Assembly (NCBI GenBank): GCA_963675785.1
Contig: OY776562.1
Location: forward strand, 2,816,001 to 2,880,000
Direction: 5' to 3'
Length of the DNA stretch: 64,000 nucleotides
Origin: Anaerolineae bacterium
GTDB lineage: Bacteria > Chloroflexota > Anaerolineae > UBA1429
Part shown: one piece after another, positions 9,747 to 21,929 of the stretch
Layout of the letters: each line of letters starts with the position of its first letter
Position numbering within the stretch: the first letter of the stretch is position 1
Translations under genes and position numbers: made by a program
Notes under the pieces: model-generated
The model's input: the letters and a program-made list of their open reading frames with translations, nothing else
Database searches by the model: none
What the model was told of the DNA's origin: nothing

Positions 9747-11189
9747 ATGCCCTCTTTGAGATTGACTTCTTCTGATCACATTAGAGACCGATGGAGCATC
9801 GGCCATGTGATGCTGTGCTGCCTGATGCTGTTACTCCTCACTTTATTATTAACAAGTTGTCGTTTCTTTGCGCCCTCAGAGGTGTCAGAACCCGTTTTAG
9901 CCCCTACATCATCCGTATTCGAAGAGACGCCTATACCTGTTACCACACCTTCTCTTCTTCCCCTAGAAACTACGCCGACGCCTTCTCCTCGTCCAACATC
10001 GCGTTCGGACTATGAGACTGTAACCCTATGGCATAGTCTCTCCCCGGACTCCCCCGAGGGACAGGCTTTGTCAGAATCTCTGGCTCGATTCGAGCAGGAG
10101 TATCCTCAGATTGTCGTCCTCGATCGCTATCGAGGTACAGATACACAGCTTTCAGAGATTCTATACGAGGCTGTCACAAATCTGAACATGCCCGATGTCG
10201 TCATTACCTCGTCCGGAACAATGGCCGAGTTGGCCAAAAGCGATGCCCTTGTTTCACTAGATGGCTTTTTGAACTGGGAACAAGACGAAGAGACCGAGTT
10301 TGAACACATCCTTTCCTCTCTGGGTTCCTGCTATGGCTGTGATGCGGGTATCTATTCGCTTCCCTATATGATTGACTCAATTGGTCTATGGTATAATCCG
10401 GAAATTTTAGACGGTCTGGGCATTGAAAAAGTACCGACGACCTGGCAAGAGTTTTCCATGACCTGCCAGTACATAAGCAGCTCTTTGGGCTCACCCGCCT
10501 TGTTGCTTGTACCTGATGGTAGGGTAGCACTAGCACTTGTTCTTAGCAGCGGTGAAATACCAACTGCAGAATCCCCTTTCTTTGAGCTGGGAGAAAATAC
10601 CTCCAGCGTACTTGAAACCATCCAGAACTTGGCTTGGGCCAACTCGATTCTGCTAGAAATGGATCAAGAAAATGCACTCAATCTGTTTCTGAATGGAGAA
10701 ATCCCATTCTGCATTTCTGGTACTGATTTCTTGAGTTCAGACGAGCTTGCTGCAAGCCAAATAGAGATTGCCCCTTTGCCGCAGTTAAATGCATCAGAGG
10801 CCACAAGTCTTGTCTACGGCTGGCATATCGGCATTAGTAAGGATGCTTCAGAATCCCGTGAACCTTCGTGGACGCTGGTACAATATTTGACATCAACACA
10901 AGAAGCCGCAGAAATCGCTCAAACCTCTGGACATCCGCCCGTAAGCCATCTGGCACTCTCTCTTGTAGGTACAGACGTTGCCCAGGAGCAAATGCTCTAC
11001 TCTAAAGCCAATGTCTTTTATGATAGTGAGCCCCTTGGTGAAAGCATAATAGGGATCGATGGAATCAAGGCAGTTCTTTCCCAAGTTTTAGTTGACATAA
11101 CAAGCGGGTCATATGTACCAAACGAGGCCCTCAAGCTGGCCCGTTCCAACATCTTGCGGCTGATTGCTTACTATGGCGTCACGCCTTGA
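9747..11189 (+). CDS. Extracellular solute-binding lipoprotein (sugar-type SBP family 1-like)
   Basis: Lipobox LLTSC, P/T linker, TLWHS, PDV, IYSLPY...LWYNPEIL; start uncertain. Confidence 0.75.
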   Translation: MPSLRLTSSDHIRDRWSIGHVMLCCLMLLLLTLLLTSCRFFAPSEVSEPVLAPTSSVFEETPIPVTTPSLLPLETTPTPSPRPTSRSDYETVTLWHSLSPDSPEGQALSESLARFEQEYPQIVVLDRYRGTDTQLSEILYEAVTNLNMPDVVITSSGTMAELAKSDALVSLDGFLNWEQDEETEFEHILSSLGSCYGCDAGIYSLPYMIDSIGLWYNPEILDGLGIEKVPTTWQEFSMTCQYISSSLGSPALLLVPDGRVALALVLSSGEIPTAESPFFELGENTSSVLETIQNLAWANSILLEMDQENALNLFLNGEIPFCISGTDFLSSDELAASQIEIAPLPQLNASEATSLVYGWHIGISKDASESREPSWTLVQYLTSTQEAAEIAQTSGHPPVSHLALSLVGTDVAQEQMLYSKANVFYDSEPLGESIIGIDGIKAVLSQVLVDITSGSYVPNEALKLARSNILRLIAYYGVTP

Positions 11190-11202
11190 TAGGAGCCCGA
11201 TT

Positions 11203-12738
11203 TTGAGTTTCTTTATTGGTATTGATATCGGAACTACAAACACCAAAGCCGTCGCCTTTAATCCAGATGGACAGGTTATTGGACGAGCATCCCGCCCAAC
11301 ACCTGTTCAAAATCTGGGAAACCGTCAGGCGTTATACGCTCCCCAAAAGTTATGGGAAGCTGTTGTTGGAGCACTAAAAGACCTTGAAGAGCAAATTCCG
11401 AATTCCCATGCGCTCGGTATTTGCGTGGCCAGCATCGGTGAATCCGGTATTCCCCTCGATTATGCGGGGCTCCCTTGCTTTCCCTCCATTGCCTGGTTCG
11501 ATGAAAGAACCTTGCCTCAGGCAGCGTGGTGGGAAAACAGGATGGGGAAAAAGGAGATATTCCAAAACACTGGCCTCTCCCTCAGTCACATTTTTTCGTT
11601 GAACAAGCTCATGTGGTTGAGATCCCGCGAACCGGATGTTTTTACCAGAACCCGACGATGGCTGTGTATCTCGGACTATATCGCCTATAGGCTGTGCGGA
11701 GAGCAGGCTACAGGCTATTCCCTAGCATCCCGAACCATGGCCTTTGATCCGCTCAAAGCATGCTGGTCCAAAGAAATGCTGGCAGCAGCAACGATTTCAG
11801 AACAGCTGTGGCCGCAACCTCTACAAGAGGGGGCATTGTTGGGCATCGTCCTGCCAGAAATTGCGCAGGACATCTCCATGCTCAGCGAGACGCCCGTTTA
11901 TGTGGGGGGACACGATCATGTGGTGGCCGCACTTGCTGTAGGGGCGATCGAACCGGGTATCATGATTGATTCCACAGGAACCACAGAAACCGAAATGGTC
12001 GCTCTCAAGAGTATTGACAAGGCCTTGAACGAGAGCAACACTTCGTTCTGCCTAGGCCGCCATGTCGTCAAAGACAGATACTATGCCATCGCAGGCATCC
12101 TCGGTGCGGGCAGCATGATTCAGTGGATGGGCAGACTTTTGTATGGTTCAGAAGTCTCAAGAGATGATAGTATTGCCATGCTGACTCAGGCGGCTCGAAC
12201 CAGTTCTGTTGGTTCAAAAGGATTGTGGATTCTGCCACATATGGCCGGCAAAGGAGCGCCAAATCGTGATGAAGCCAGCAAGGCTGTTATCACCGGCCTG
12301 GGCTTGGATCATACCCATCAGGATATTGCTCGAGCCACCATCGAGGGATTGGCCTACGAACTGGCCTATCTTTGGGAAGCTCTAGAAGGCTTTACAGGAC
12401 AGCCTTCTCTGCGCACAATCTCTGTAGGGGGAGGATCGCAGAACGAATTCTGGATGCAGATCAAAGCGGACGTAACCAATCGTACGTTGTATGTTGCTTC
12501 TGAGGCAGAAGCTGTAGCAAAAGGAGCCGCTATGCTGGCTGGCATTGGACACGGCCTATGGCCCGACGCTCAAACTGCTGTAGAAGCCTGGCAAAGTAAT
12601 AGCTCGACTATTGTTCCAGATTCTGAGACAGCCAAAGAATATGCCCGACTTTGCTCTACGCTTCAGGGCATTCGCCCTATAGCACATGCTCTTGAACAAG
12701 GTTCCAAGCTCTTAAACCACCAATCGTCGGTAGGGTAG
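11203..12738 (+). CDS. FGGY family carbohydrate kinase
   Basis: IGIDIGTTNTKA, IAWFDERT, GGHDH, GGGS; TTG start after AGGAG. Confidence 0.9.
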   Translation: MSFFIGIDIGTTNTKAVAFNPDGQVIGRASRPTPVQNLGNRQALYAPQKLWEAVVGALKDLEEQIPNSHALGICVASIGESGIPLDYAGLPCFPSIAWFDERTLPQAAWWENRMGKKEIFQNTGLSLSHIFSLNKLMWLRSREPDVFTRTRRWLCISDYIAYRLCGEQATGYSLASRTMAFDPLKACWSKEMLAAATISEQLWPQPLQEGALLGIVLPEIAQDISMLSETPVYVGGHDHVVAALAVGAIEPGIMIDSTGTTETEMVALKSIDKALNESNTSFCLGRHVVKDRYYAIAGILGAGSMIQWMGRLLYGSEVSRDDSIAMLTQAARTSSVGSKGLWILPHMAGKGAPNRDEASKAVITGLGLDHTHQDIARATIEGLAYELAYLWEALEGFTGQPSLRTISVGGGSQNEFWMQIKADVTNRTLYVASEAEAVAKGAAMLAGIGHGLWPDAQTAVEAWQSNSSTIVPDSETAKEYARLCSTLQGIRPIAHALEQGSKLLNHQSSVG

Positions 12739-12741
12739 CAT

Positions 12742-15700
12742 ATGCCTCAAGACTATCCACTCATTCGCACAAAAACCATAGTCCCTCGGCTTCGGGACTC
12801 TCTTGTTCCGCGCCAACGACTCGTCGATCTATTACACAGCAATATTCATAACAAGCTGGTTCTTATCTCGGCAGGGGCAGGATACGGCAAAACTTCATTG
12901 CTCAACCAGTATGCTCATGATGCCGGAATTCCTGTCTGTTGGTATAGCCTGGATGAGAACGATAATAGTCTTGGTACCTTTAGCCGTTACCTGGTCCGTT
13001 CCATCCAGGAACAATTCCCTGCTTTTGGCCAAAGCGTTCTCACTTATCTACAGGATGTTGGAGCATTAGCAGATGTTGAACCTCTCGTAGGATTATTCCT
13101 CCAAGAGATAGAGTCCCATGCAAATCAGTTCTTTGCCCTGCTGTTGGATGACTATCATCAAGTTATACAAAGCGAGCCAGTCAATGCGTTGTTGGATGGC
13201 TTGTTGCGCTATCTGCCCGATCAATGCCACATCGTTTTAGCCTCGCGAGGCGTTCCCAGGCGCCTTACACTTTCTCGATTGGCCGCCCGCCAAGAAATAG
13301 CTGGATTTGGCGCCAGCGAATTGTGCTTTAACAGCGAGGAAATCAGAATGCTCCTCGCAAACATGGGGCACCTCGATCTGGATGAAAAAGAAATCGAGGC
13401 CATTGCCCAAAGAACAGAAGGCTGGGTGACGGGCATCATCCTTACCGCCCAAACTAGCTTGACCGACTCTGTTCGCGATATTTTGCATATCGTAGGGTCA
13501 AACGAAGGCGTATTTGATTATCTGGCTGAAGAAATCCTCTCGCAGCAGACGCATGAGGTGCAAGAGTTTCTTCTTGCGACATCTCTATTCCAACAAATGA
13601 CACCGAGCCTTTGTAATGCGCTGCTCGACATAGATCAATCGAGTCAGATTTTGCGGTATCTCGTTGAGGAAAACCTCTTTACCGTCTCTCTGGATGCCGG
13701 CAGCAAATGGTACGAATATCATCAACTGTTTCGCGAATTCCTGCGCACCCGCCTGGAAAGAGAAGACCCTGAGCTTTTCCGAGCCTTGTGCCTTAAACAA
13801 GCACAGCTTGTTTCGACGCAAGGAGATTGGGCGCAGGCCATTTCCAGTTATCTCACCGTACAAGCCTATGAACAAGCTGCCGAAGCCTTGGAAATCGTCG
13901 TTCAAGAAGGGTTCGTTTCTGGCGATTATGCCCAACTGGACATCTGGTTCGATCAATTTACCGATCAGCTTCTCAACAAGCATCCTCGACTTTTGCTCTT
14001 TCGTTCACGTGTAGCAACAGAGCGCGGCAATGCCACAGAAGCCGAACGTATCGCCCAGCAAGCCTATGCCGCCGCATGCGACCTACATGATGACGCCTCG
14101 GCTGCCCGCTCGTTGGTGCAATTGGCCGTATTGAGACGCTTTCAGGGCAAGCCGGCAGAAGCCATCAGCTTTTCAGAAAAGGCGCTTGCCCTGGTTGATC
14201 CTCAAGATCTGATTACCGCAGAACAGGCTCATCGTGATATTGGCATATCTCTCTGTATGCAAGGAGATATGGCTGGCGGCGTAGAGGAACTAGAAAAAGC
14301 TCTCGAGATCGCAATCAGCATACCCAACGAAACCGAAGTAGCTCTCATTTCTGCTGATATTGGTTCTGCAGAAATCATCCGGGGGCATCTCGAAAAAGCT
14401 AGACGCCACTATCATCAGTCGCTTCTTTATTGGCGTAGAACTGGCAATGATGCCAGATTAGCGCATACGCTACAAAGTCTGGGCCTGATTCATCACTATA
14501 TGGGCCAGTATGCCGAAGCCGAAAATCGCTTTGAGGAAAGCCTCAACAAAGCTAAGAGTGTCTCTGATTTACGAATACAAGCTTATGCCTTGACCAGCCT
14601 CGGGGACATGTACCGAGATATGCGTAGGTATGATCAAGCATCAACAGAATATGAACTTGCTTATGCTTGCGCTAACGAGGGGGCTCTAACCCCCATGATT
14701 AGTTACGCCATGTGTATGCGCGGAGATACACTCAGATTGAAGGGCGAATTAGATCTTGCGCATCAGGTATTGCTAGAAGCGCAAGATCAACTTAGTCCTG
14801 AAGAAATGCCCTTTGAACAGGGAATTTGCGATTTGGCTATGGGCGCCTATTTTCTCGAAACGAGCAATCTTCAGAAAGCTGAAGATCATTTGCGCCACGC
14901 ATTGGAGCTACTACAGGCAAGTAACAGTACACGGGATGTGGCCCGAACACACCTCTACCTGGCTAATCTTGCTTATAAACGGGGGCAAAGAGAAGAACTT
15001 GATGCACAGATATCCAATGCTGTAAGTTACGTTCAAGCGTTGGGAACAAGCCAGTTCATCGTCGCTGAGTCCGTCTCGATGATCGATATGCTCTATGCCT
15101 GCTCTCACGAGCGCCAGGGCAGATTTGATTTCGCCGAGATTTTCAACGCCATCGATACTTTGATCCATAAACCAGCCCTCGACATTAATTCAATTCTTTA
15201 TCAGATATCACTCCTTTCCCTGGATAACAACCGCATCTTGAAGGATAATGCCTTGGTGACCGACTGGGAATCAGAGATCGCCAAGCTCATGGTCTTTTTA
15301 TTCGCAGAGAACCCTACCGGCCTCAGACGAGACCGCGTCATCGATTTGCTTTGGCCTGAAGCCACACCTGCCAGGGGCAATTCGTTATTCCACTCAACTC
15401 TTTACCGATTGCGCTCTTCTCTGGGCAAAGATTTTATTATTCACAGCAAAGGGCTATACCTCCTCAACCCCGATATCTCTTGCTATTATGATACCCGCCG
15501 ATTGCAGGAATGCTTTGCTCAGGGACGCAATTCGGGGGATATGGCACATATCGCCCGACAAGAGGCTCTCAACATCTATCACACACCTTTTCTTGACCCC
15601 TTTGATCTGGAATGGTGCACTCAAAAGAGGGATCAATTACATGCACAGATGCTGGAATTAGTCATCTCAGAAGCACTGTACCAACTCCATACGGGCGACA

Positions 15701-15936
15701 TGGATACGTCAGAAAGCCTGTTCATCCGCGCCAGAGGGCTTGAGCCTTTTGATGAACGAGCCTATAGGGGCGTGATGTGGTGCAGGGCATCGCGCAATGA
15801 CAGAGCCGGGGCACTGCGCGAGTACAAGGAATGTGAAGTGATTTTGGCCAAAGAACTGGATGTCGAACCCTCTCTTGAGACGCTGGAGCTATACGATGCT
15901 ATTACCAATGGGGTTCCCTTGCCGCCGCTCGAATAA
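12742..15936 (+). CDS. Large transcriptional activator: MalT-type ATPase, TPR array, winged helix and BTAD domain
   Basis: RTK..P...RQRL, Walker A GAGYGKT, Walker B LLLDDYH, TEGW, YHQLFREFL, TPR-like helices, LLWPE...LYRLR, EPFDERAYR...ELDVEPS. Confidence 0.9.
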   Translation: MPQDYPLIRTKTIVPRLRDSLVPRQRLVDLLHSNIHNKLVLISAGAGYGKTSLLNQYAHDAGIPVCWYSLDENDNSLGTFSRYLVRSIQEQFPAFGQSVLTYLQDVGALADVEPLVGLFLQEIESHANQFFALLLDDYHQVIQSEPVNALLDGLLRYLPDQCHIVLASRGVPRRLTLSRLAARQEIAGFGASELCFNSEEIRMLLANMGHLDLDEKEIEAIAQRTEGWVTGIILTAQTSLTDSVRDILHIVGSNEGVFDYLAEEILSQQTHEVQEFLLATSLFQQMTPSLCNALLDIDQSSQILRYLVEENLFTVSLDAGSKWYEYHQLFREFLRTRLEREDPELFRALCLKQAQLVSTQGDWAQAISSYLTVQAYEQAAEALEIVVQEGFVSGDYAQLDIWFDQFTDQLLNKHPRLLLFRSRVATERGNATEAERIAQQAYAAACDLHDDASAARSLVQLAVLRRFQGKPAEAISFSEKALALVDPQDLITAEQAHRDIGISLCMQGDMAGGVEELEKALEIAISIPNETEVALISADIGSAEIIRGHLEKARRHYHQSLLYWRRTGNDARLAHTLQSLGLIHHYMGQYAEAENRFEESLNKAKSVSDLRIQAYALTSLGDMYRDMRRYDQASTEYELAYACANEGALTPMISYAMCMRGDTLRLKGELDLAHQVLLEAQDQLSPEEMPFEQGICDLAMGAYFLETSNLQKAEDHLRHALELLQASNSTRDVARTHLYLANLAYKRGQREELDAQISNAVSYVQALGTSQFIVAESVSMIDMLYACSHERQGRFDFAEIFNAIDTLIHKPALDINSILYQISLLSLDNNRILKDNALVTDWESEIAKLMVFLFAENPTGLRRDRVIDLLWPEATPARGNSLFHSTLYRLRSSLGKDFIIHSKGLYLLNPDISCYYDTRRLQECFAQGRNSGDMAHIARQEALNIYHTPFLDPFDLEWCTQKRDQLHAQMLELVISEALYQLHTGDMDTSESLFIRARGLEPFDERAYRGVMWCRASRNDRAGALREYKECEVILAKELDVEPSLETLELYDAITNGVPLPPLE

Positions 15937-15957
15937 TAAAGCTTCTCCTTCACTGCA

Positions 15958-15993
15958 CAAAAAGAGATTTCCCTCAAAGGAAATCTCTTTTTG
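15958..15993 (+). terminator. Intrinsic terminator after the regulator
   Basis: CAAAAAGAGATTTCC / GGAAATCTCTTTTTG. Confidence 0.85.
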
Positions 15994-16002
15994 TTATTCT
16001 TA

Positions 16003-16067: not shown

Positions 16068-16175
16068 ATGAAAAAGACCTATTACACCATCGTCTATATC
16101 GTGCTCTCTCTCACAGCTCTGGTTATGGCCAGCGGCGCCCCAGTTGCCTTCGGCGGCAGCGGCACCGGCGGCTGA
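16068..16175 (+). CDS. 35-aa precursor peptide copy 1, MKKTYYTIVYIVLSLTALVMASGAPVAFGGSGTGG
   Basis: GGAGGT RBS 7 nt upstream; signal-peptide-like N/H regions; duplicated with only synonymous changes. Confidence 0.85.
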   Translation: MKKTYYTIVYIVLSLTALVMASGAPVAFGGSGTGG

Positions 16176-16221: not shown

Positions 16222-16329
16222 ATGAAAAAGACCTATTACACCATCGTCTATATCGTGCTCTCTCTCACGGCTCTGGTTATGGCCAGCGGCGCCCCAGTTG
16301 CCTTCGGCGGCAGCGGCACTGGCGGCTGA
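16222..16329 (+). CDS. 35-aa precursor peptide copy 2 (identical protein)
   Basis: Own GGGAG RBS; differs from copy 1 only at ACA/ACG (Thr16) and ACC/ACT (Thr33). Confidence 0.85.
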   Translation: MKKTYYTIVYIVLSLTALVMASGAPVAFGGSGTGG

Positions 16330-16354
16330 TCAAACAGTCTATTGATGCCTTGCG

Positions 16355-16969
16355 ATGATACTTTTAGTTGCCGTCATTTTCTCGATCGCCATCGCGCTCA
16401 TTCGAGGCGGATCCTTTAACAATCTGGGGCAGGTTAAATTCAGATACGGGTGGCTCGCCATTCTAGCCTTTGCTCTGCAAGCCGTCATCATCTGGGCTCC
16501 CCTCGAATCCGGCAATGGTTTAACGCATCCAAGAACTCTTTTATTGCTCGGATCGTACGGAATTCTTGTGGCAGTCGTCTTGTTGAATCGTAAGCTAGCA
16601 GGCATTATCATCATCGGTTTGGGACTTTTACTCAACCTGACCGTAATGGTCGCTAATGACGGATTTATGCCCGTTGATTCCTCTGTCCTCAGAACAGCAG
16701 GTCTTGAAGAATTAGCCCTATCTGATGAGACGGGTTCCCGGCTCACATCAACCAAAGATATTCTGCTCCCGCGAGAACAGACCAATCTTTGGGTTCTAAG
16801 TGACATATTCGTTATTCCCGCCAATTGGCCCCTGTCTACGATCTTTAGCATCGGCGACGTTTTCTTGGCGATAGGCGTGTTCGTTTTTCTTCAGCGGTAC
16901 CTATCAAAATCGCCCGCCATGCAGAACAGTGAACAAACCAGTCCTGTCGACCCAGATTTTGAGGAGTAA
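16355..16969 (+). CDS. DUF5317-like integral membrane protein (candidate aspartyl peptidase)
   Basis: RGG near N-terminus, SY...N, GLLLNLTVMVANDGFMPV, LWVLSDIF, FSIGD motifs; several TM helices. Confidence 0.8.
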   Translation: MILLVAVIFSIAIALIRGGSFNNLGQVKFRYGWLAILAFALQAVIIWAPLESGNGLTHPRTLLLLGSYGILVAVVLLNRKLAGIIIIGLGLLLNLTVMVANDGFMPVDSSVLRTAGLEELALSDETGSRLTSTKDILLPREQTNLWVLSDIFVIPANWPLSTIFSIGDVFLAIGVFVFLQRYLSKSPAMQNSEQTSPVDPDFEE

Positions 16970-16973
16970 TAGC

Positions 16974-17219
16974 ATGGCAAAAGACGATCTTCAAGAACTT
17001 GTTGGTACTGCGATCATCAGTAGTCAATTTAGAAGTGAGTTGATCACAAACACAGCGCGAGCTATAGAGGACTTTAACCTCTCTCCTGAAGAGCGTCTGT
17101 TCGTCAGCAATATTCGCGCCAACACATTCCAATCTTTTGCGCAGCAGCTGCATGATTGGATATCTGATGAATCACCTGTGGTCATGCATCGAGTGCCCAC
17201 AGCCATTATTACGCGGTAA
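16974..17219 (+). CDS. 81-aa small protein resembling NHLP-clan (Os1348-like) leader-type proteins
   Basis: GAGGAG RBS; LVGTAIISSQFRSELI...FNLSPEER matches the G.A..D..FR..L...L..EE pattern. Confidence 0.65.
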   Translation: MAKDDLQELVGTAIISSQFRSELITNTARAIEDFNLSPEERLFVSNIRANTFQSFAQQLHDWISDESPVVMHRVPTAIITR

Positions 17220-17268
17220 CAGGCACCTGTTGCCTCCTGGCGCTACTAAAGACGCCAAGTCCCTTTTG

Positions 17269-17303
17269 AAGTGCGCCTGACACCCCCCTGTCAGGCGCAC
17301 TTT
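17269..17303 (+). terminator. Stem-loop terminator closing the peptide operon
   Basis: AAGTGCGCCTGACA / TGTCAGGCGCACTT 14-bp stem. Confidence 0.7.
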
Positions 17304-17402: not shown

Positions 17403-19403
17403 ATGCCCAAAATCTCATCTGAAACCCGCCGATTGGCTGTTAACACGATCAAGATGCTGGCAGTTGATGGCGTCGAAAAGGCTAATTCAGGCCATCCAGG
17501 TCTCCCCATGGGTGCGGCCGACTATGCCTTTGTTATCTTTGCCGAGTATCTCAAGCATTACCCCAAGGATCCCTCTTGGCCTAACCGCGACCGTTTTATC
17601 CTGTCAGCAGGCCACGGCTCGATGCTTTTGTACTCGCTTCTTCACCTCTCTGGCTATGACCTTCCACTCGAAGAGCTCAAGCGCTTCCGTCAGTACGAAA
17701 GCCTTACCCCCGGTCACCCCGAATACGGTTTGACGGTTGGCGTTGAAACCACCACCGGCCCGTTGGGGCAGGGGTTTTCCAACGGCGTAGGTATGGCTAT
17801 CGCATCCAAGATGTCTGCTGAAAAGTACAACACCACCGAGACGATCGTCGATCACTATATCTATGGTATCGTCAGCGATGGCGATCTGATGGAAGGTGTA
17901 AGCTCGGAAGCAGCCTCCCTAGCAGGTCATCTGGGCCTAGGTAACATCATTTACTTTTATGATGACAACCGCATTAGCATCGAGGGTAGCACAGAGCTTG
18001 CCTTTACTGAAGATCGCGGTAAGCGCTTTGAAGCCTATGGCTGGCAAGTGCTTTACATCAACGGTCATGACGCTGAGCAAGCCGCCAAGGCCATCGAAGA
18101 AGCAAAGGCCGAACCTAACCGCCCGACATTGGTTGTAGCCCGCACACATATTGGCAAGGGCAGCCCACATAAAGTTGATTCGGCCGAAGTGCACGGCGCC
18201 CCGCTTGGTGCCGAGGAAGTTTCTGCGACCAAAAAGGCCCTCGGTTGGCCAGAAGAACCGACCTTTTATGTGCCCGATGAAGTTCGCGAGCTCTTTGCCG
18301 CACGGCAAAAGGAACTCGAAGAGACCTACGATGAATGGCAGGTCACATTGTCTCGTTGGGAAAAGGCCAATCCTGAATTAGCTGCCCAGCGAAAAGCAGC
18401 CATGAACAAGGTTCTCCCGGATGATCTAGAAGAGCAATTGCTCTCCACACTCTCTGGCAAACCTGACGCCACCCGCCGTATTTCCGGTCAAGTCATCCAA
18501 AAAATACATGAGCTTTTGCCCTATTTTGTGGGCGGTTCGGCAGACCTGGCTCCCTCAACATCGACCCTTATCAAGCAGGCTGAGGATATTGGCCCTGGCC
18601 ATTTTAACGGACATAATTTCCATTTCGGTGTACGCGAACATGCCATGGGTTCGATTCTCAACGGCATTGCTTTGTATGGTGGCTTTATCCCCTTTGGGGC
18701 TACCTTCCTTGTATTTGCCGATTATATGCGACCACCCGTTCGCCTATCCAATATCATGGGCGTGCAGGTTGTGTATGTCTGGACGCATGACAGTATCTTT
18801 GTGGGCGAGGACGGCCCTACACACGAGCCGGTAGAACAAGTCGCCTCGTTGCGCTTGATCCCAGGCATGAAGGTCATCCGCCCGGCGGACGGTCCCGAAG
18901 TGGCTGCTTCTTGGGCCTATGCCCTGCGCCATCAGGATGGCCCAACGGCTTTGATCCTAACCCGCCAGGGTGTACCCAACATCAAACGGCAGAGCGATTT
19001 CTGCTTCAAGGCTTTTAACAAGGGCGCTTACATCGTCGCCGAAACAGCTAACAAAGAGCCCGATGTGGTTATCGTTGCCACCGGTTCCGAACTCCAGTTC
19101 GCTGTGGACGCAGTCGAGCCACTTGAAGCAGCAGGCTATGCCGTACGCGTTATCTCGATGCCCTGCAGAGAGCTTTACGAAGCGCAAGACTGTGCCTGGA
19201 AGGATGCCCTCATCCCCGATTCGGCCCGCAAGGTCGTCGTCGAAGCGGGAACCAAGTTCGGATGGGGTGATATCGTCGGCAAAAAGGCTCTCTTTATCAC
19301 TCAGGATGAATATGGCAAGTCTGGCCCGTACAAGACATTGATGGAAGAAATGGGCTTTACCAGTGAAAAGGTTGCCAAGCGTATTCTTGCCTGGCTCCAG
19401 TAA
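17403..19403 (+). CDS. tkt: Transketolase
   Basis: SGHPGLPMG, RDRFILSAGH, GDLMEG, GVREHAM, THDSIFVGEDGPTH. Confidence 0.98.
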   Translation: MPKISSETRRLAVNTIKMLAVDGVEKANSGHPGLPMGAADYAFVIFAEYLKHYPKDPSWPNRDRFILSAGHGSMLLYSLLHLSGYDLPLEELKRFRQYESLTPGHPEYGLTVGVETTTGPLGQGFSNGVGMAIASKMSAEKYNTTETIVDHYIYGIVSDGDLMEGVSSEAASLAGHLGLGNIIYFYDDNRISIEGSTELAFTEDRGKRFEAYGWQVLYINGHDAEQAAKAIEEAKAEPNRPTLVVARTHIGKGSPHKVDSAEVHGAPLGAEEVSATKKALGWPEEPTFYVPDEVRELFAARQKELEETYDEWQVTLSRWEKANPELAAQRKAAMNKVLPDDLEEQLLSTLSGKPDATRRISGQVIQKIHELLPYFVGGSADLAPSTSTLIKQAEDIGPGHFNGHNFHFGVREHAMGSILNGIALYGGFIPFGATFLVFADYMRPPVRLSNIMGVQVVYVWTHDSIFVGEDGPTHEPVEQVASLRLIPGMKVIRPADGPEVAASWAYALRHQDGPTALILTRQGVPNIKRQSDFCFKAFNKGAYIVAETANKEPDVVIVATGSELQFAVDAVEPLEAAGYAVRVISMPCRELYEAQDCAWKDALIPDSARKVVVEAGTKFGWGDIVGKKALFITQDEYGKSGPYKTLMEEMGFTSEKVAKRILAWLQ

Positions 19404-19408
19404 CATAA

Positions 19409-19441
19409 ACAAAGAGGGGGAGCGATGCTCCCCCTCTTTGT
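19409..19441. terminator. Bidirectional terminator
   Basis: ACAAAGAGGGGGAGC-GAT-GCTCCCCCTCTTTGT. Confidence 0.8.
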
Positions 19442-20709
19442 TATATATTTGCCTTTTTTATTTTGATCAACATCCTCATCATAGATCCTGTTATAAGCCT
19501 AAGGCCCCCAATTATCCACAAAGCCGCCTGAATACCTACCAAACTAGATATAGCTGTGCCAAGAAGCGGACCAGCAAAAGCACAGATATTATCAATCATG
19601 GCGTTAGCCGCTGCAAAGGTAGGTCTTTGGTCTTGAGGTGAAACGCGATAAAGCGTCTCGGTGAGAAAAATGCTAAATCCCGAGTTAAAAATGCCGCCAG
19701 CCACAGCAGATATTAGTAATTGAGGAGGGTTCACTGCAAGAGCCGTCAGTATTGGATACAACACGGTTGCCACACAAGTCAGCCACAGCCAGCGCCTTAC
19801 ACTCTGTTTGCGTAAGAGCCGGCTCAAGGCTAAATAGCCCAAGGTAGAAAAAAGCTGCTGAACCGTGAGAATGATCCCGATCCAGGCGTCGCTAGCTCCG
19901 ACTTCACGTACCCGGTAGATCGAATAGAGCGCCGCAGGCATCTGAAGGCTGAGTCGAAAGGCGAGAACGAGAATAGCATATTTGCGAAAAGCCGGTGCAT
20001 CCTTGATTAATTGCAACATCCCCTTGAAACCCAGGCTTTGCTTATTCTTTGCTTGGGGAAGGGCCGAGGTAGGAATCTGCAGCTGGCGCATGTTCAGATT
20101 ACCGAGAATCGCTGGCACAATCGCAAAACCAAATAATACAGAGTAATTTATGGGGTAGGGAGCCCAGTCAAGCCACTGACCGGCAAGAAAACCAACGACA
20201 GCCGCGGATAGGCCGTTCACTGCCAGCCGCATCGAGAGCATATTAGCCCGTCGTCTCTCTGTCGTTGCTGCCCCCAGGATCGTCGTCATACTGACATTGC
20301 CTACAGCAGTGGCGCCTGACAGGAGGCTTCGGCCAAAAACCAACAGGTAGGGAGAAATCGCGGCGGAAAGAAAGGGCAATATAGAAAAGGTGCTGATTCC
20401 GATGCGAAAAACCGCTCTTCCACCGTTCACTGCTTTGACCAAGTCACCCTTGCGTTGAATAAAAGCCGCAGCTGGTAATGCAGCAATCGTCATCAACAAT
20501 GCGGGCAGTGATGTGAGTAACCCTACTAACATATCTGAGGAACCCAGACGAACGAGATACACCGAGAGAAAAGCTGTTATCCCGCTTCCAATAATGGCCT
20601 GAATTGCGGCATCGCGATAAAGGATATGTTCATTGTACTCGTCGCGATTCAATAAACGACGAATCCCCCGCAGCTTGAACATTTGCGGTTTTTCAGGCAT
20701 AGGCTCCAC
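19441..20709 (-). CDS. MFS transporter
   Basis: About 12 hydrophobic segments in a 422-aa ORF with MFS-like layout. Confidence 0.8.
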   Translation of the reverse strand: MEPMPEKPQMFKLRGIRRLLNRDEYNEHILYRDAAIQAIIGSGITAFLSVYLVRLGSSDMLVGLLTSLPALLMTIAALPAAAFIQRKGDLVKAVNGGRAVFRIGISTFSILPFLSAAISPYLLVFGRSLLSGATAVGNVSMTTILGAATTERRRANMLSMRLAVNGLSAAVVGFLAGQWLDWAPYPINYSVLFGFAIVPAILGNLNMRQLQIPTSALPQAKNKQSLGFKGMLQLIKDAPAFRKYAILVLAFRLSLQMPAALYSIYRVREVGASDAWIGIILTVQQLFSTLGYLALSRLLRKQSVRRWLWLTCVATVLYPILTALAVNPPQLLISAVAGGIFNSGFSIFLTETLYRVSPQDQRPTFAAANAMIDNICAFAGPLLGTAISSLVGIQAALWIIGGLRLITGSMMRMLIKIKKANI

Positions 20710-20901: not shown

Positions 20902-21036
20902 ATGCGTATCTTTTGGAACGTTCTGTTTGCTCTTGTTATCCCTATTGGATGGGGAGTTCTTAGTTCTTGGTTCTTTGATTATTTGAGGACGCGGCGAGGG
21001 AAAAAGCAAGATTGTAACGAAGGGAATAACGTGTAA
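20902..21036 (+). CDS. 44-aa small membrane protein MRIFWNVLFALVIPIGWGVLSSWFFDYLRTRRGKKQDCNEGNNV
   Basis: GAGAGG RBS; one TM helix and basic tail; TAA overlaps next ATG (TAATG). Confidence 0.65.
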   Translation: MRIFWNVLFALVIPIGWGVLSSWFFDYLRTRRGKKQDCNEGNNV

Positions 21037-21929
21037 TGGCTGTTTTCCACGTTACCCCCCTCATTTTTATTGGAGCGCTCGTTTTAGGAAGCGGCATTGG
21101 CGTGCTGACCGGGCTGTTTGGCGTCGGCGGTGGATTTCTCGTCACCCCCTTGCTCAACATTCTGTTGGGGGTACCCATGTCGATTGCAGTAGGCACGGGG
21201 AGTCTGCTTACCCTGGGAACCTCAACTGCGGGGCTGTATCGCCGGCATAAAGAACATCTGGTAGATTACAAGCTGGCAATCGTCATGTTTGGCGGCAATC
21301 TGGTGGGGGTTCGCCTCGGAGATAGCCTATTGCAAAGCCTCAAAGGGCTGGGAGAGATCGCTATTGGCGGCACTTTTTTGGATGCTGTCGATATTATCCC
21401 CAAGTTTGTCTTTATCGTTCTATTGGCAGCCATTACCGGGTGGATTTTGTACGATACTCTGCATAACACGGCGCAAGAGGACGCCCCTGTAACGGGTATT
21501 TTTGGCAAAATTCGTATTCCCCCTTATACCAACTTTGAGACGCTCGACCACCCGCGTATGTCCATCGCCGCCATCTCGTATTTCGGTGTGTTAGTGGGTT
21601 TTCTGACGGGATTGTTAGGTATTGGAGGTGGCGTCATTATGATGCCCGCCCTTTTGTACCTCGTTGGCATGCGACCACATCGATCTTCCGCAACCAGTCT
21701 GGCCATTGTTTTTCTCTCTTCACTAGTAGCTGTCATCTCCAAAGTGCCCCAAGGAGATACCAGTATTCCTCTAGCCATTCCCTTACTGCTTGGCGGAACA
21801 TTTGGCCTACAATTTGGTGTTTCTATCTGTAACAAGACCAGCGGATCGAATCTCAAGAAATATTTTGTTGGCGTCGTCGTAGCTGCGATGGTCGTTGTCA
21901 TCTATAATGTTATTTCGCTCGTCTTTTAG
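21036..21929 (+). CDS. TauE/SafE (TSUP) family transporter
   Basis: GLFGVGGGFLVTP and GLLGIGGGVIMMP repeats, AVGT and ATSL motifs. Confidence 0.9.
   Translation: MAVFHVTPLIFIGALVLGSGIGVLTGLFGVGGGFLVTPLLNILLGVPMSIAVGTGSLLTLGTSTAGLYRRHKEHLVDYKLAIVMFGGNLVGVRLGDSLLQSLKGLGEIAIGGTFLDAVDIIPKFVFIVLLAAITGWILYDTLHNTAQEDAPVTGIFGKIRIPPYTNFETLDHPRMSIAAISYFGVLVGFLTGLLGIGGGVIMMPALLYLVGMRPHRSSATSLAIVFLSSLVAVISKVPQGDTSIPLAIPLLLGGTFGLQFGVSICNKTSGSNLKKYFVGVVVAAMVVVIYNVISLVF

Follow-up and report, generated by a model that had tools for sequence, protein, structure and literature searches.

Pairing of DUF5317 membrane proteins with co-encoded mini-peptides in Chloroflexota and Deinococcota, and a possible role in peptide processing

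The window considered here is a stretch of 64,000 nucleotides from an Anaerolineae bacterium of the phylum Chloroflexota (assembly GCA_963675785.1, contig OY776562.1, positions 2,816,001 to 2,880,000 of the forward strand), and coordinates are given as positions within it. At 16355..16969 on the plus strand lies a gene encoding a membrane protein of 204 residues that belongs to the family DUF5317 and has five transmembrane (TM) helices and an outer-face domain (residues 101-165); upstream of it are two genes for one and the same mini-precursor peptide. DUF5317 is a large family without an assigned function, and the family of its partner mini-peptides was previously unnamed. The constant pair across the three lineages surveyed is the mini-peptide and DUF5317, while the third partner is variable and always a signalling protein; in Chloroflexota, a regulator, the peptide, DUF5317 and an Os1348-like protein form a conserved unit.

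The DUF5317 gene and its mini-peptides

The assignment to DUF5317, which the initial annotation of the window had made from the letters of the DNA, was borne out by a Pfam match of the product (PF17248, E 3.9e-35, 121.5 bits, cut-off 25) that spans residues 27-180 and profile positions 2-151 of 151; no NCBIfam model was matched. The host genome, a single 3.2-Mb contig, holds one DUF5317 copy, and the family comprises 2801 cluster representatives at E <= 0.001 in a full scan of 1.84 billion representatives. An Asn and two Asp residues to which the same annotation had pointed were recovered by script in the contexts GLGLLLN94LTV, WVLSD150IFV and FSIGD168VFL, with D150 and D168 lying 18 residues apart, as had been described.

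The invariance of the two Asp residues across the family, proposed at that time as a check, was found throughout. In an alignment of 127 rows, made up of the window protein, 118 of 150 listed 50%-identity representatives (those of 175-230 residues, minus four with partial matches) and eight distant matches, N94, G103, D150, S165, G167, D168 and G174 are invariant, and Q42, N78, G90, N101, M105, P106, L145 and L148 are at least 90% conserved. Thirty-six further sequences, drawn from Deinococcota and from another, HD-GYP-linked gene context in Chloroflexota, all share N78, G90, N94, N101, G103, M105, P106, L148, D150, S165, G167 and D168 (36/36), so that the motif residues, being invariant in both sets, are real rather than a chance pattern. 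The polar residues counted as invariant in DUF5317 are N78, N94, N101, D150, S165 and D168.

The AlphaFold2 model of the protein (predicted local distance difference test (pLDDT) 94.5, predicted template-modelling score (pTM) 0.87) has five TM helices and a strand-rich region at residues 101-165, and its DSSP string gives a hairpin (E152-154 / E162-164) followed by TM5 (H166-183), with D150 just before the first hairpin strand and D168 as the third residue of TM5. Lys and Arg residues were counted per DUF5317 sequence, with means of 3.39 for the loop 17-31, 0.65 for 48-58, 1.25 for 78-83 (six residues long) and 2.24 for the stretch beyond TM5, and by the positive-inside rule these counts would place N94, N101, D150, S165 and D168 at the outer membrane face. 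An invariant A-N-G-G-x-M-P-V motif (residues 95-119, window about 16637-16711) matches, at chance level, a stretch in the G domains of EF-Tu and IF2 in the PDB (A-A-N-D-G-P-M-P-Q-T, E 0.33-1.8), which is probably a coincidence. The N-terminal extensions of four family members (P0140, P0163, P0121 and P0106) were considered as peptide-DUF5317 fusions and set aside, as they look like over-long calls of the open reading frame (ORF).

The two mini-precursor peptides are encoded at 16068..16175 (coding 16068-16172) and 16222..16329 (coding 16222-16326), both on the plus strand. The ORFs differ by two synonymous bases and yield an identical protein of 35 residues, with a basic N-terminus, one hydrophobic helix, an A-S-G-A-P site and a Gly-rich tail of 11 residues, so that both copies end in ...LVMASGAPVAFGGSGTGG. 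The Cys-less, lipobox-like peptides that had been noticed next to DUF5317 are accordingly two real ORFs holding L-V-M-A-S-G-A-P; none of the mini-peptides tested against Pfam and NCBIfam matched a model. Contigs from two related strains differ from the ORF of copy 2 at six bases each, and these changes are synonymous in 6 of 6 cases for one strain and in 5 of 6 for the other, which argues that it is a real, constrained gene. One related strain (run X5) has a 10-base insertion at window position 16340, in the spacer between copy 2 and DUF5317, and in the tail of its peptide a single Ala is replaced by Ser. Between the two copies the assembly graphs of the DNA runs are interrupted, which a tandem repeat would lead one to expect. 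RNA-library contigs of a related strain run from peptide copy 2 into DUF5317 (16230-16603) and from DUF5317 into the Os1348-like gene (16906-17055); these are Logan contigs of one metatranscriptome with a small word share, which do not prove transcription and are uninformative on the parts they do not cover.

The charge distribution of the peptides (mean Lys plus Arg 3.41 before the helix, 0.41 after the site) suggests an N-in/C-out orientation, in which the small-residue site would be found at the same outer face as the Asn/Asp cluster of DUF5317. A complex prediction of DUF5317 with the peptide was graded as 'weak support', at a score of 0.41 against 0.00 for the best control; this mark is reached by 58 of 80 solved complexes and by 2 of 110 mismatched pairs, and of these, only 7 of the 80 solved complexes but both of the passing mismatches reached it with a score of 0.60 or less. 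The runs used self-made alignments with no contacts given, and had at least 78% contact agreement and a partner pLDDT of at least 59.

Upstream of the peptide genes, at 12742..15936 on the plus strand, lies the gene of a STAND ATPase/TPR/BTAD transcription regulator of 1064 residues, MalT- and AfsR-like, which was recognized by Pfam matches to TPR_12 (9.9e-29), BTAD (2.2e-15), TPR_MalT (2.6e-15) and AAA_16 (3e-4); its match to NCBIfam MalT (8.8e-72) is below the cut-off of that model. This regulator is likely the output of the cassette. Downstream of DUF5317, at 16974..17219 on the plus strand, an Os1348-family small protein of the NHLP clan (81 residues) is encoded, which matches NCBIfam NF038399 (E 9.6e-12, 44.8 bits) above the cut-off of 40 and Pfam Frankia_peptide (1.1e-6) below the cut-off. 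A Frankia_peptide/Os1348-like domain is fused after TM5 in 3 of the 10 longest DUF5317 members scanned.

Recurrence of the pair in three lineages

In Chloroflexota, 101 loci (97 non-redundant) were collected from the class of the window and from GTDB species genomes, and a peptide was counted as a same-strand upstream ORF with a hydrophobic run and G-A-[PLGAD] at most 30 residues from the end. Such a peptide is present in 85 of the 97 non-redundant loci, five of which have no upstream sequence at all, and in 85 of the 92 with at least 150 nucleotides upstream, with the reservation that these loci are kin, gathered by likeness to the query, and not independent. The pattern matches 90 of 1065 nearby ORFs versus 1 of 9701 other ORFs in the same loci; a stricter first regular expression had under-counted (47 of 97 loci) and was replaced by this looser one. 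Among the seven loci scored as negative, two have the peptide upstream of an intervening HD-GYP gene, two more hold variant look-alikes, judged by eye, and no peptide was found in the remaining three (L058, L061 and L074). In the window clade, at least 90% of 71 peptides carry Pro directly behind G-A, and this is the only free observation at the site, since the invariance of G-A itself in the 71-peptide alignment was imposed by the regular expression that collected the peptides and hence is not evidence. An Os1348-like ORF occurs in 84 of the 97 loci, immediately downstream of DUF5317 in 76, and a homologue of the BTAD-ending regulator lies upstream on the same strand in 69.

DUF5317 was also found in 28 of 61 sampled Deinococcota genomes, where an HD-GYP homologue is located directly upstream of it in 24 of the 28 loci; the one example scanned with Pfam carries MASE9 and HD_5. 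Additional upstream DNA was obtained for 20 loci, 19 of them eligible, and in 17 of these 19 an ORF of 29-31 residues lies just upstream of the HD-GYP gene that precedes DUF5317. The encoded peptide is basic at its N-terminus and forms a single helix that closes with A-G-A; its tail counts five residues, the next-to-last of which is Trp. An Os1348-like gene is found only at the atypical locus L155 among the 28, and at none of the 20 extended loci. Locus L149/L155, on a contig titled Deinococcus sp. MAG, combines a peptide of the G-A-P type with two upstream Os1348-like ORFs and, on the opposite strand, a BTAD-like gene, and is the sole Chloroflexota-type cassette in the Deinococcota sample, which points to gene transfer or to a mis-binned contig.

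The third lineage emerged from nine longer DUF5317 relatives, eight of which are fusions of DUF5317 to an MFS_3/MFS_1 transporter. In 24 of 25 eligible metagenome loci of this MFS-fusion lineage, a mini-peptide, with G-G-A at the end of its helix and five residues beyond, is encoded upstream of the HD-GYP gene that precedes the fusion; among the 54 loci that hold a DUF5317 ORF, the HD-GYP gene is directly upstream in 36 and an Os1348-like gene was found in none. The fusion proteins (P0205-P0212, loci L243-L313) stem from a high-G+C soil lineage and consist of DUF5317 placed N-terminal to a DHA3-type MFS transporter of about 680 residues.

Taken over the three lineages, the mini-proteins have 29-59 residues, a basic N-terminus, a single hydrophobic helix and a small-residue site, which is G-A-P in the window clade and A-G-A-x or G-G-A-S elsewhere; the residue after this site is P, D, S, G, A, T or F and never Cys, and the tail, counted from the residue after G-A, has a mean of about 10 residues and a range of 2-26. 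The Deinococcota and MFS lineages are the more independent support compared with the Chloroflexota loci, and since the two genes are found together in three lineages while the third partner changes, a functional partnership of peptide and DUF5317 is regarded as highly probable. The cytoplasmic-end fusions of the Os1348-like domain and its absence from the two other lineages indicate that the Os1348-like protein is probably a cytoplasmic accessory of DUF5317 and not its substrate. A further idea, that the mini-peptide is a free-standing first helix of MASE9, was rejected, as the best match of the peptide hidden Markov model to MASE9 N-termini had E 25.

Two terminator-like hairpins on the plus strand were picked up at the window locus by a consensus scan only, one between the regulator and peptide genes (15957..15994, a 16-pair stem and a T run) and one after the Os1348-like gene (17268..17303, a 15-pair stem with eight G-C pairs). 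The first (window 15959-15992) also matches an unrelated 2248-base contig in run X2, and in X2 and X5 it is flanked by loose ends at either side; a similar hairpin therefore occurs elsewhere in that genome. The neighbours of the cassette (11164-12738, 17403-19403, 19441-20709 on the minus strand, and 21036-21929) have an ordinary housekeeping or transport look: by Pfam they include an FGGY sugar kinase, an MFS transporter and a TauE/SafE exporter, and a 666-residue ORF was judged by eye from its sequence to be transketolase-like. No peptide-modifying enzyme was found among the neighbouring genes scanned.

A candidate aspartyl dyad and its relation to known peptidases

The initial annotation had interpreted DUF5317 as a peptidase of the LspA fold (lipoprotein signal peptidase, Peptidase A8) acting on the adjacent peptides. 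The functional link between DUF5317 and the peptides is supported by the pairing in three lineages, while membership in the LspA fold and in A8 is not supported. The reading preferred here is that DUF5317 is a peptidase which cuts the co-encoded peptide and works in an LspA-like manner without being an A8 member; this is regarded as plausible, a little short of probable, whereas the broader proposition that DUF5317 is an enzyme is judged rather probable.

In such a mechanism, the peptide would insert with its N-terminus inside and its C-terminus outside, and its helix would dock against DUF5317. D150 and D168, at the hairpin base and in the first turn of TM5, would then act as an aspartyl dyad hydrolyzing the chain at or next to the G-A site, after small residues and at the outer leaflet, so that a short C-terminal tail (PVAFGGSGTGG here, pentapeptides in other lineages) would be released outside the cell as a signal. 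This signal might be read by the adjacent STAND-TPR-BTAD regulator in the window-type cassette, and elsewhere by the MASE9 membrane sensor of an HD-GYP phosphodiesterase of cyclic di-GMP (c-di-GMP), with the Os1348-like protein as a putative cytoplasmic accessory domain of DUF5317. Signal peptidase I is blocked by Pro at position +1, so the Pro that almost always follows G-A would exclude this general enzyme, and hence a dedicated one fits the window clade.

LspA (PF01252; 5DIR, 6RYO and 6RYP) is the closest comparison. Both proteins are small and polytopic, and both have an Asn in the penultimate TM helix, a first Asp by a beta-hairpin and a second Asp, in [polar]-x-[small]-D, as the third residue of the last TM helix; for all three residues of DUF5317 the outer face is predicted, as in LspA, and the presumed substrate of DUF5317 is likewise a signal-peptide-like helix ending in small residues. 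In the model of the host's own LspA, DSSP gives TM3, a hairpin (E122-128 / E131-134) and TM4 (H136-155), where D124 falls within the first strand and D138 is third in TM4, so that the models of both proteins have a common local layout, a beta-hairpin right before the last TM helix and the second Asp third in that helix. D124 and D138 are 14 residues apart, which contradicts the idea that the LspA spacing is fixed at 18-19. DUF5317 differs from LspA in having five TM helices rather than four, an insert of about 50 residues with the A-N-G-G-x-M-P-V motif, partner peptides without a lipidated Cys, and a presumed dedication to co-encoded mini-peptides as opposed to the proteome-wide substrates of LspA. 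It also lacks the D..K and N-x-G-x-A-F-G motifs and R116: the LspA invariants D24, K28, N58, G60, F63 and R116 have no invariant counterparts in DUF5317, and a test of the N-terminal D..K, N-x-G-x-A-F-G and G-N-x-x-D-R motifs left only the penultimate-helix Asn (N94) in common. DUF5317 may work like LspA, and it is not a Peptidase A8 member.

Several results weigh against the preferred reading, among them those of searches for relatives. Pfam Peptidase_A8 (PF01252) does not match the window protein at E <= 1 and touches 2 of the 127 DUF5317 members (best E 1.4), leaving the other 125 without a match. A phmmer search of the window protein against the PDB gave 0 matches at E <= 10, and the 14 matches of the DUF5317 profile to PDB sequences at E <= 10 include no LspA, being chance matches to EF-Tu/IF2 only (E >= 0.33). 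Foldseek of the DUF5317 model against the PDB returned nothing at E <= 0.001 (best E 1.2), and LspA, presenilin and FlaK are absent from its 30 rows at E <= 10, while the control model of the host LspA found 5dir, 6ryo and 6ryp at 2.8e-11 to 1.3e-10. The fold of LspA, made up of four TM helices, a beta-cradle and a periplasmic helix, was not recognized in DUF5317. The feature neighbours in a structure atlas are DUF5317 clusters only, with nothing usable once PF17248 is skipped.

The profile comparison with hhalign counts on both sides. Against 29 Chloroflexota LspA sequences it produced one local alignment of 44 columns (score 25.2, E 0.0043, probability 8%), in which D150 is aligned with the Asp of V-x-D-F and D168 with that of F-N-x-A-D. 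Reversed alignments scored 13.9 and 15.1, and 29 of 30 column shuffles 9.2-18.6; when the profiles of DUF5317, LspA, prepilin peptidase and rhomboid were paired in five other ways, the scores were 15.9-18.5. One of the 30 shuffles reached 27.2 and thus exceeded the real score. The weak likeness of the two profiles is the best of those tried, but it is not significant. A global alignment scored 7.5 (E 0.14), and an extended local alignment, collinear in that N-R-x-L-P-G faces Y-R-x-L-P after the preceding helix, is of low confidence and was not counted as evidence. A common ancestry of DUF5317 and LspA is accordingly considered doubtful.

Other families came no closer. The peptidases of the GxGD type (A24, and presenilin/signal peptide peptidase, A22) resemble DUF5317 in having two Asp residues in or near TM helices, the second in [small]-x-G-D, which is S-x-G-D in DUF5317, but there is no fold match, and the hhalign alignment with 30 Chloroflexota A24 sequences (score 18.4, E 0.06) covers six columns away from the Asp motifs. 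Peptidase_A24 is not among the 25 Pfam families most frequently matched by the 127 DUF5317 members. A difference is that the cut of prepilin peptidases falls in front of the helix, at its cytoplasmic side; a likeness is that signal peptide peptidase acts on signal-peptide remnants. To judge from these comparisons, DUF5317 has no detectable relation to any known peptidase family.

On the same side of the balance stand the proximity of D150 and D168, which is read from a DSSP string only and must be taken as predicted, and the three peptide-less loci, the kinship of the Chloroflexota loci and the imposed G-A invariance described above. The sites of the Deinococcota and MFS lineages (A-G-A then D, S or G; G-G-A then S) conform to the -3/-1 rule that usually holds for signal peptidase I, the general enzyme, hence a dedicated peptidase is not obviously needed there. 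Every catalytic statement made here about DUF5317, its peptidase activity included, is an inference.

In the course of the search for LspA relatives, sub-threshold PF01252 matches (20.7-23.9 bits) were seen in three Chloroflexota genomes (L032, L033 and L034). The suspicion that those in L032 and L034 are DUF5317 proteins was dropped, since in both the match falls on a divergent LspA-like ORF of its own (L032:851-1381 and L034:982-1368, both on the plus strand), which is arranged head-to-head with a neighbouring PspA-like gene and keeps G-N, T-D-W and T-N-V-A-D. Several Chloroflexota genomes have a tandem pair of full-length LspA genes (G036:C5:2412412-2413352, G024:C5:21249-22195, G011:C1:149927-150861 and G019:C14:151662-152647).

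Alternative explanations and biological meaning

The alternative that survives best is that DUF5317 is a non-catalytic membrane partner or co-receptor, the mini-peptide being a permanent single-helix subunit or a ligand, from which the signal is passed to MASE9-HD-GYP or, via the Os1348-like domain, to the STAND-BTAD regulator, while the Asn/Asp cluster binds a ligand or an ion. The lineage-varying partners, which are all signalling proteins (HD_5 with MASE9; BTAD, TPR and AAA_16), speak for it, as do the fusions of Os1348-like domains to the cytoplasmic end of DUF5317 in 3 of the 10 long members scanned and the lack of a detectable relation to any peptidase. In addition, the authors who described MASE9 argue from sequence that its ligand is bound within the membrane (bioRxiv 10.1101/2021.11.05.467447), and an intramembrane ligand fits a non-catalytic complex as well as it fits a peptidase, which further counts against the latter. 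However, all of the 36 sequences, which cover two phyla and two gene contexts, agree in 12 residues that include two Asp and three Asn predicted on the same membrane face, as would be expected for an active site rather than for a surface that binds. The peptides, moreover, keep a small-residue site of the processing type, while the tail beyond it varies widely between lineages. On balance, this alternative is thought unlikely.

A second alternative leaves the release of the tail to signal peptidase I or another housekeeping protease and lets DUF5317 act later, either by a cut of the leftover helix in the manner of signal peptide peptidase or as an exporter or receptor of the product. Besides the fit of the Deinococcota and MFS sites (A-G-A or G-G-A with D, S or G) to the -3/-1 rule, it can draw on two such peptides that weakly resemble the OmpA signal peptide (E 0.39-0.47), and on the DUF5317-MFS transporter fusion in eight of nine longer relatives found. 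The Pro that follows G-A in at least 90% of the 71 window-clade peptides would block cleavage by signal peptidase I, precursors of 29-35 residues are very short for the ordinary Sec route, and the invariant cluster is predicted at the outer face together with the G-A site and not in mid-membrane, so that a scheme of this kind is given little credence. A processing domain fused to an exporter is also known from the C39 peptidase-ABC exporters of bacteriocins, from which the DUF5317 systems differ in using MFS rather than ABC transporters and in lacking both a double-glycine leader and a Cys peptidase domain.

It is improbable that DUF5317 carries out another chemistry on the peptide instead of hydrolysis, for instance that of a transpeptidase, of a cyclase or of a transferase of lipids or head groups at G-A-P. 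The gene pairing and the invariant polar cluster would fit equally, the type of reaction not being fixed by the data, and the A-N-G-G-x-M-P-V motif has no counterpart in LspA; but Pfam detects no cofactor-binding or transferase family, and two carboxylates by a hairpin together with a signal-peptide-like site are the pattern of a membrane aspartyl peptidase, as in LspA.

It is very improbable that the Os1348-like protein of the NHLP clan, instead of the mini-peptide, is the precursor processed by DUF5317, as in clusters for peptides that are made by the ribosome and modified after translation (RiPPs). The window gene 16974-17219 does match NF038399 above the cut-off (the Frankia_peptide family is PF14407), C-terminal tails vary between homologues, and the prototype from Pseudomonas sp. 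Os17 has been proposed to be a modified, antibiotic-related precursor, whose gene has three enzymes beside it, a GNAT, a HEXXH peptidase and one of the SagB type (PMC7726476). At the window, by contrast, none of these three was found by the Os1348-like gene, which adjoins DUF5317 (and is fused to it elsewhere), and the neighbouring genes scanned include no modifying enzyme. The gene is also missing in Deinococcota, bar L155, and in the 54 MFS-lineage loci, where the invariant residues of DUF5317 are kept and where nearly all loci with enough upstream sequence retain the mini-peptide, and the fused domain sits at the cytoplasmic C-terminus, across the membrane from D150/D168. That DUF5317 is a diverged true LspA paralogue for ordinary lipoproteins is effectively refuted, for this view has only the motif likeness and the weak hhalign alignment on its side, and a canonical LspA is encoded elsewhere in the host genome (PF01252, E 1.2e-34), neither a Pfam A8 match nor a fold match was obtained while the LspA control matched, and the partner peptides have no Cys at the site.

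Returning to DUF5317 as a peptidase for its co-encoded peptide, the arrangement is reminiscent of peptide quorum sensing in Bacillota, by AgrB/AgrD, by Eep/RseP with SHP and sex-pheromone precursors, and by Phr/Rap, in which a tiny precursor gene lies by a membrane processor and/or a TPR regulator and the signal is a short C-terminal piece. The window shares with these systems a small precursor gene next to a membrane protein and a TPR-containing regulator (TPR_12, BTAD). It differs from them in catalytic type, in its outputs (STAND-BTAD or MASE9-HD-GYP) and in its hosts (Chloroflexota and Deinococcota), and none of the Agr, Eep or Phr families is among the 25 most frequent Pfam matches of the 127 DUF5317 members.

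A wider and decidedly more tentative proposal, which we would not call likely, is that a peptide signalling system, widespread and so far undescribed, is built around DUF5317 and the mini-precursor. Among membrane-embedded aspartyl peptidases DUF5317 would represent a third kind, convergent with or anciently related to LspA, which would cut a precursor of 29-59 residues at the outer face and free a tail, often of five residues, as an extracellular cue. The tail or the leftover helix would be the intramembrane ligand of MASE9 and set c-di-GMP via HD-GYP in Thermus-type Deinococcota and in the soil lineage, while in Chloroflexota it would drive the STAND-TPR-BTAD activator, with the Os1348-like domain as the cytoplasmic link.

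In 8.1 million PMC papers and in bioRxiv, with supplementary files outside the scope, no paper naming DUF5317, PF17248 or IPR035168 was found and none on Franean1_4349, and the retrieved portions of this literature held nothing relevant on HD-GYP with Thermus and a small peptide, or on LspA-like proteins and LspA paralogues. Genes of 29-35 residues, such as those of the mini-peptides, are easily overlooked by gene callers. The family-wide pairing offers DUF5317 a definite role that can be tested and a candidate natural substrate, and as a DUF5317 match was found in Thermus thermophilus in a control panel of genomes, a genetically tractable carrier is at hand in which direct testing is possible.

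If the preferred reading is true, DUF5317 would be a new family of membrane peptidases, distinct from LspA but sharing with it the place of action and the type of site. It would also bring peptide-based signalling to Chloroflexota and Deinococcota, in which, to our knowledge, no such signalling is known. For the MASE9-HD-GYP phosphodiesterases of c-di-GMP, whose input is described as unknown (bioRxiv 10.1101/2021.11.05.467447), the mini-peptides would be a candidate source of the ligand.

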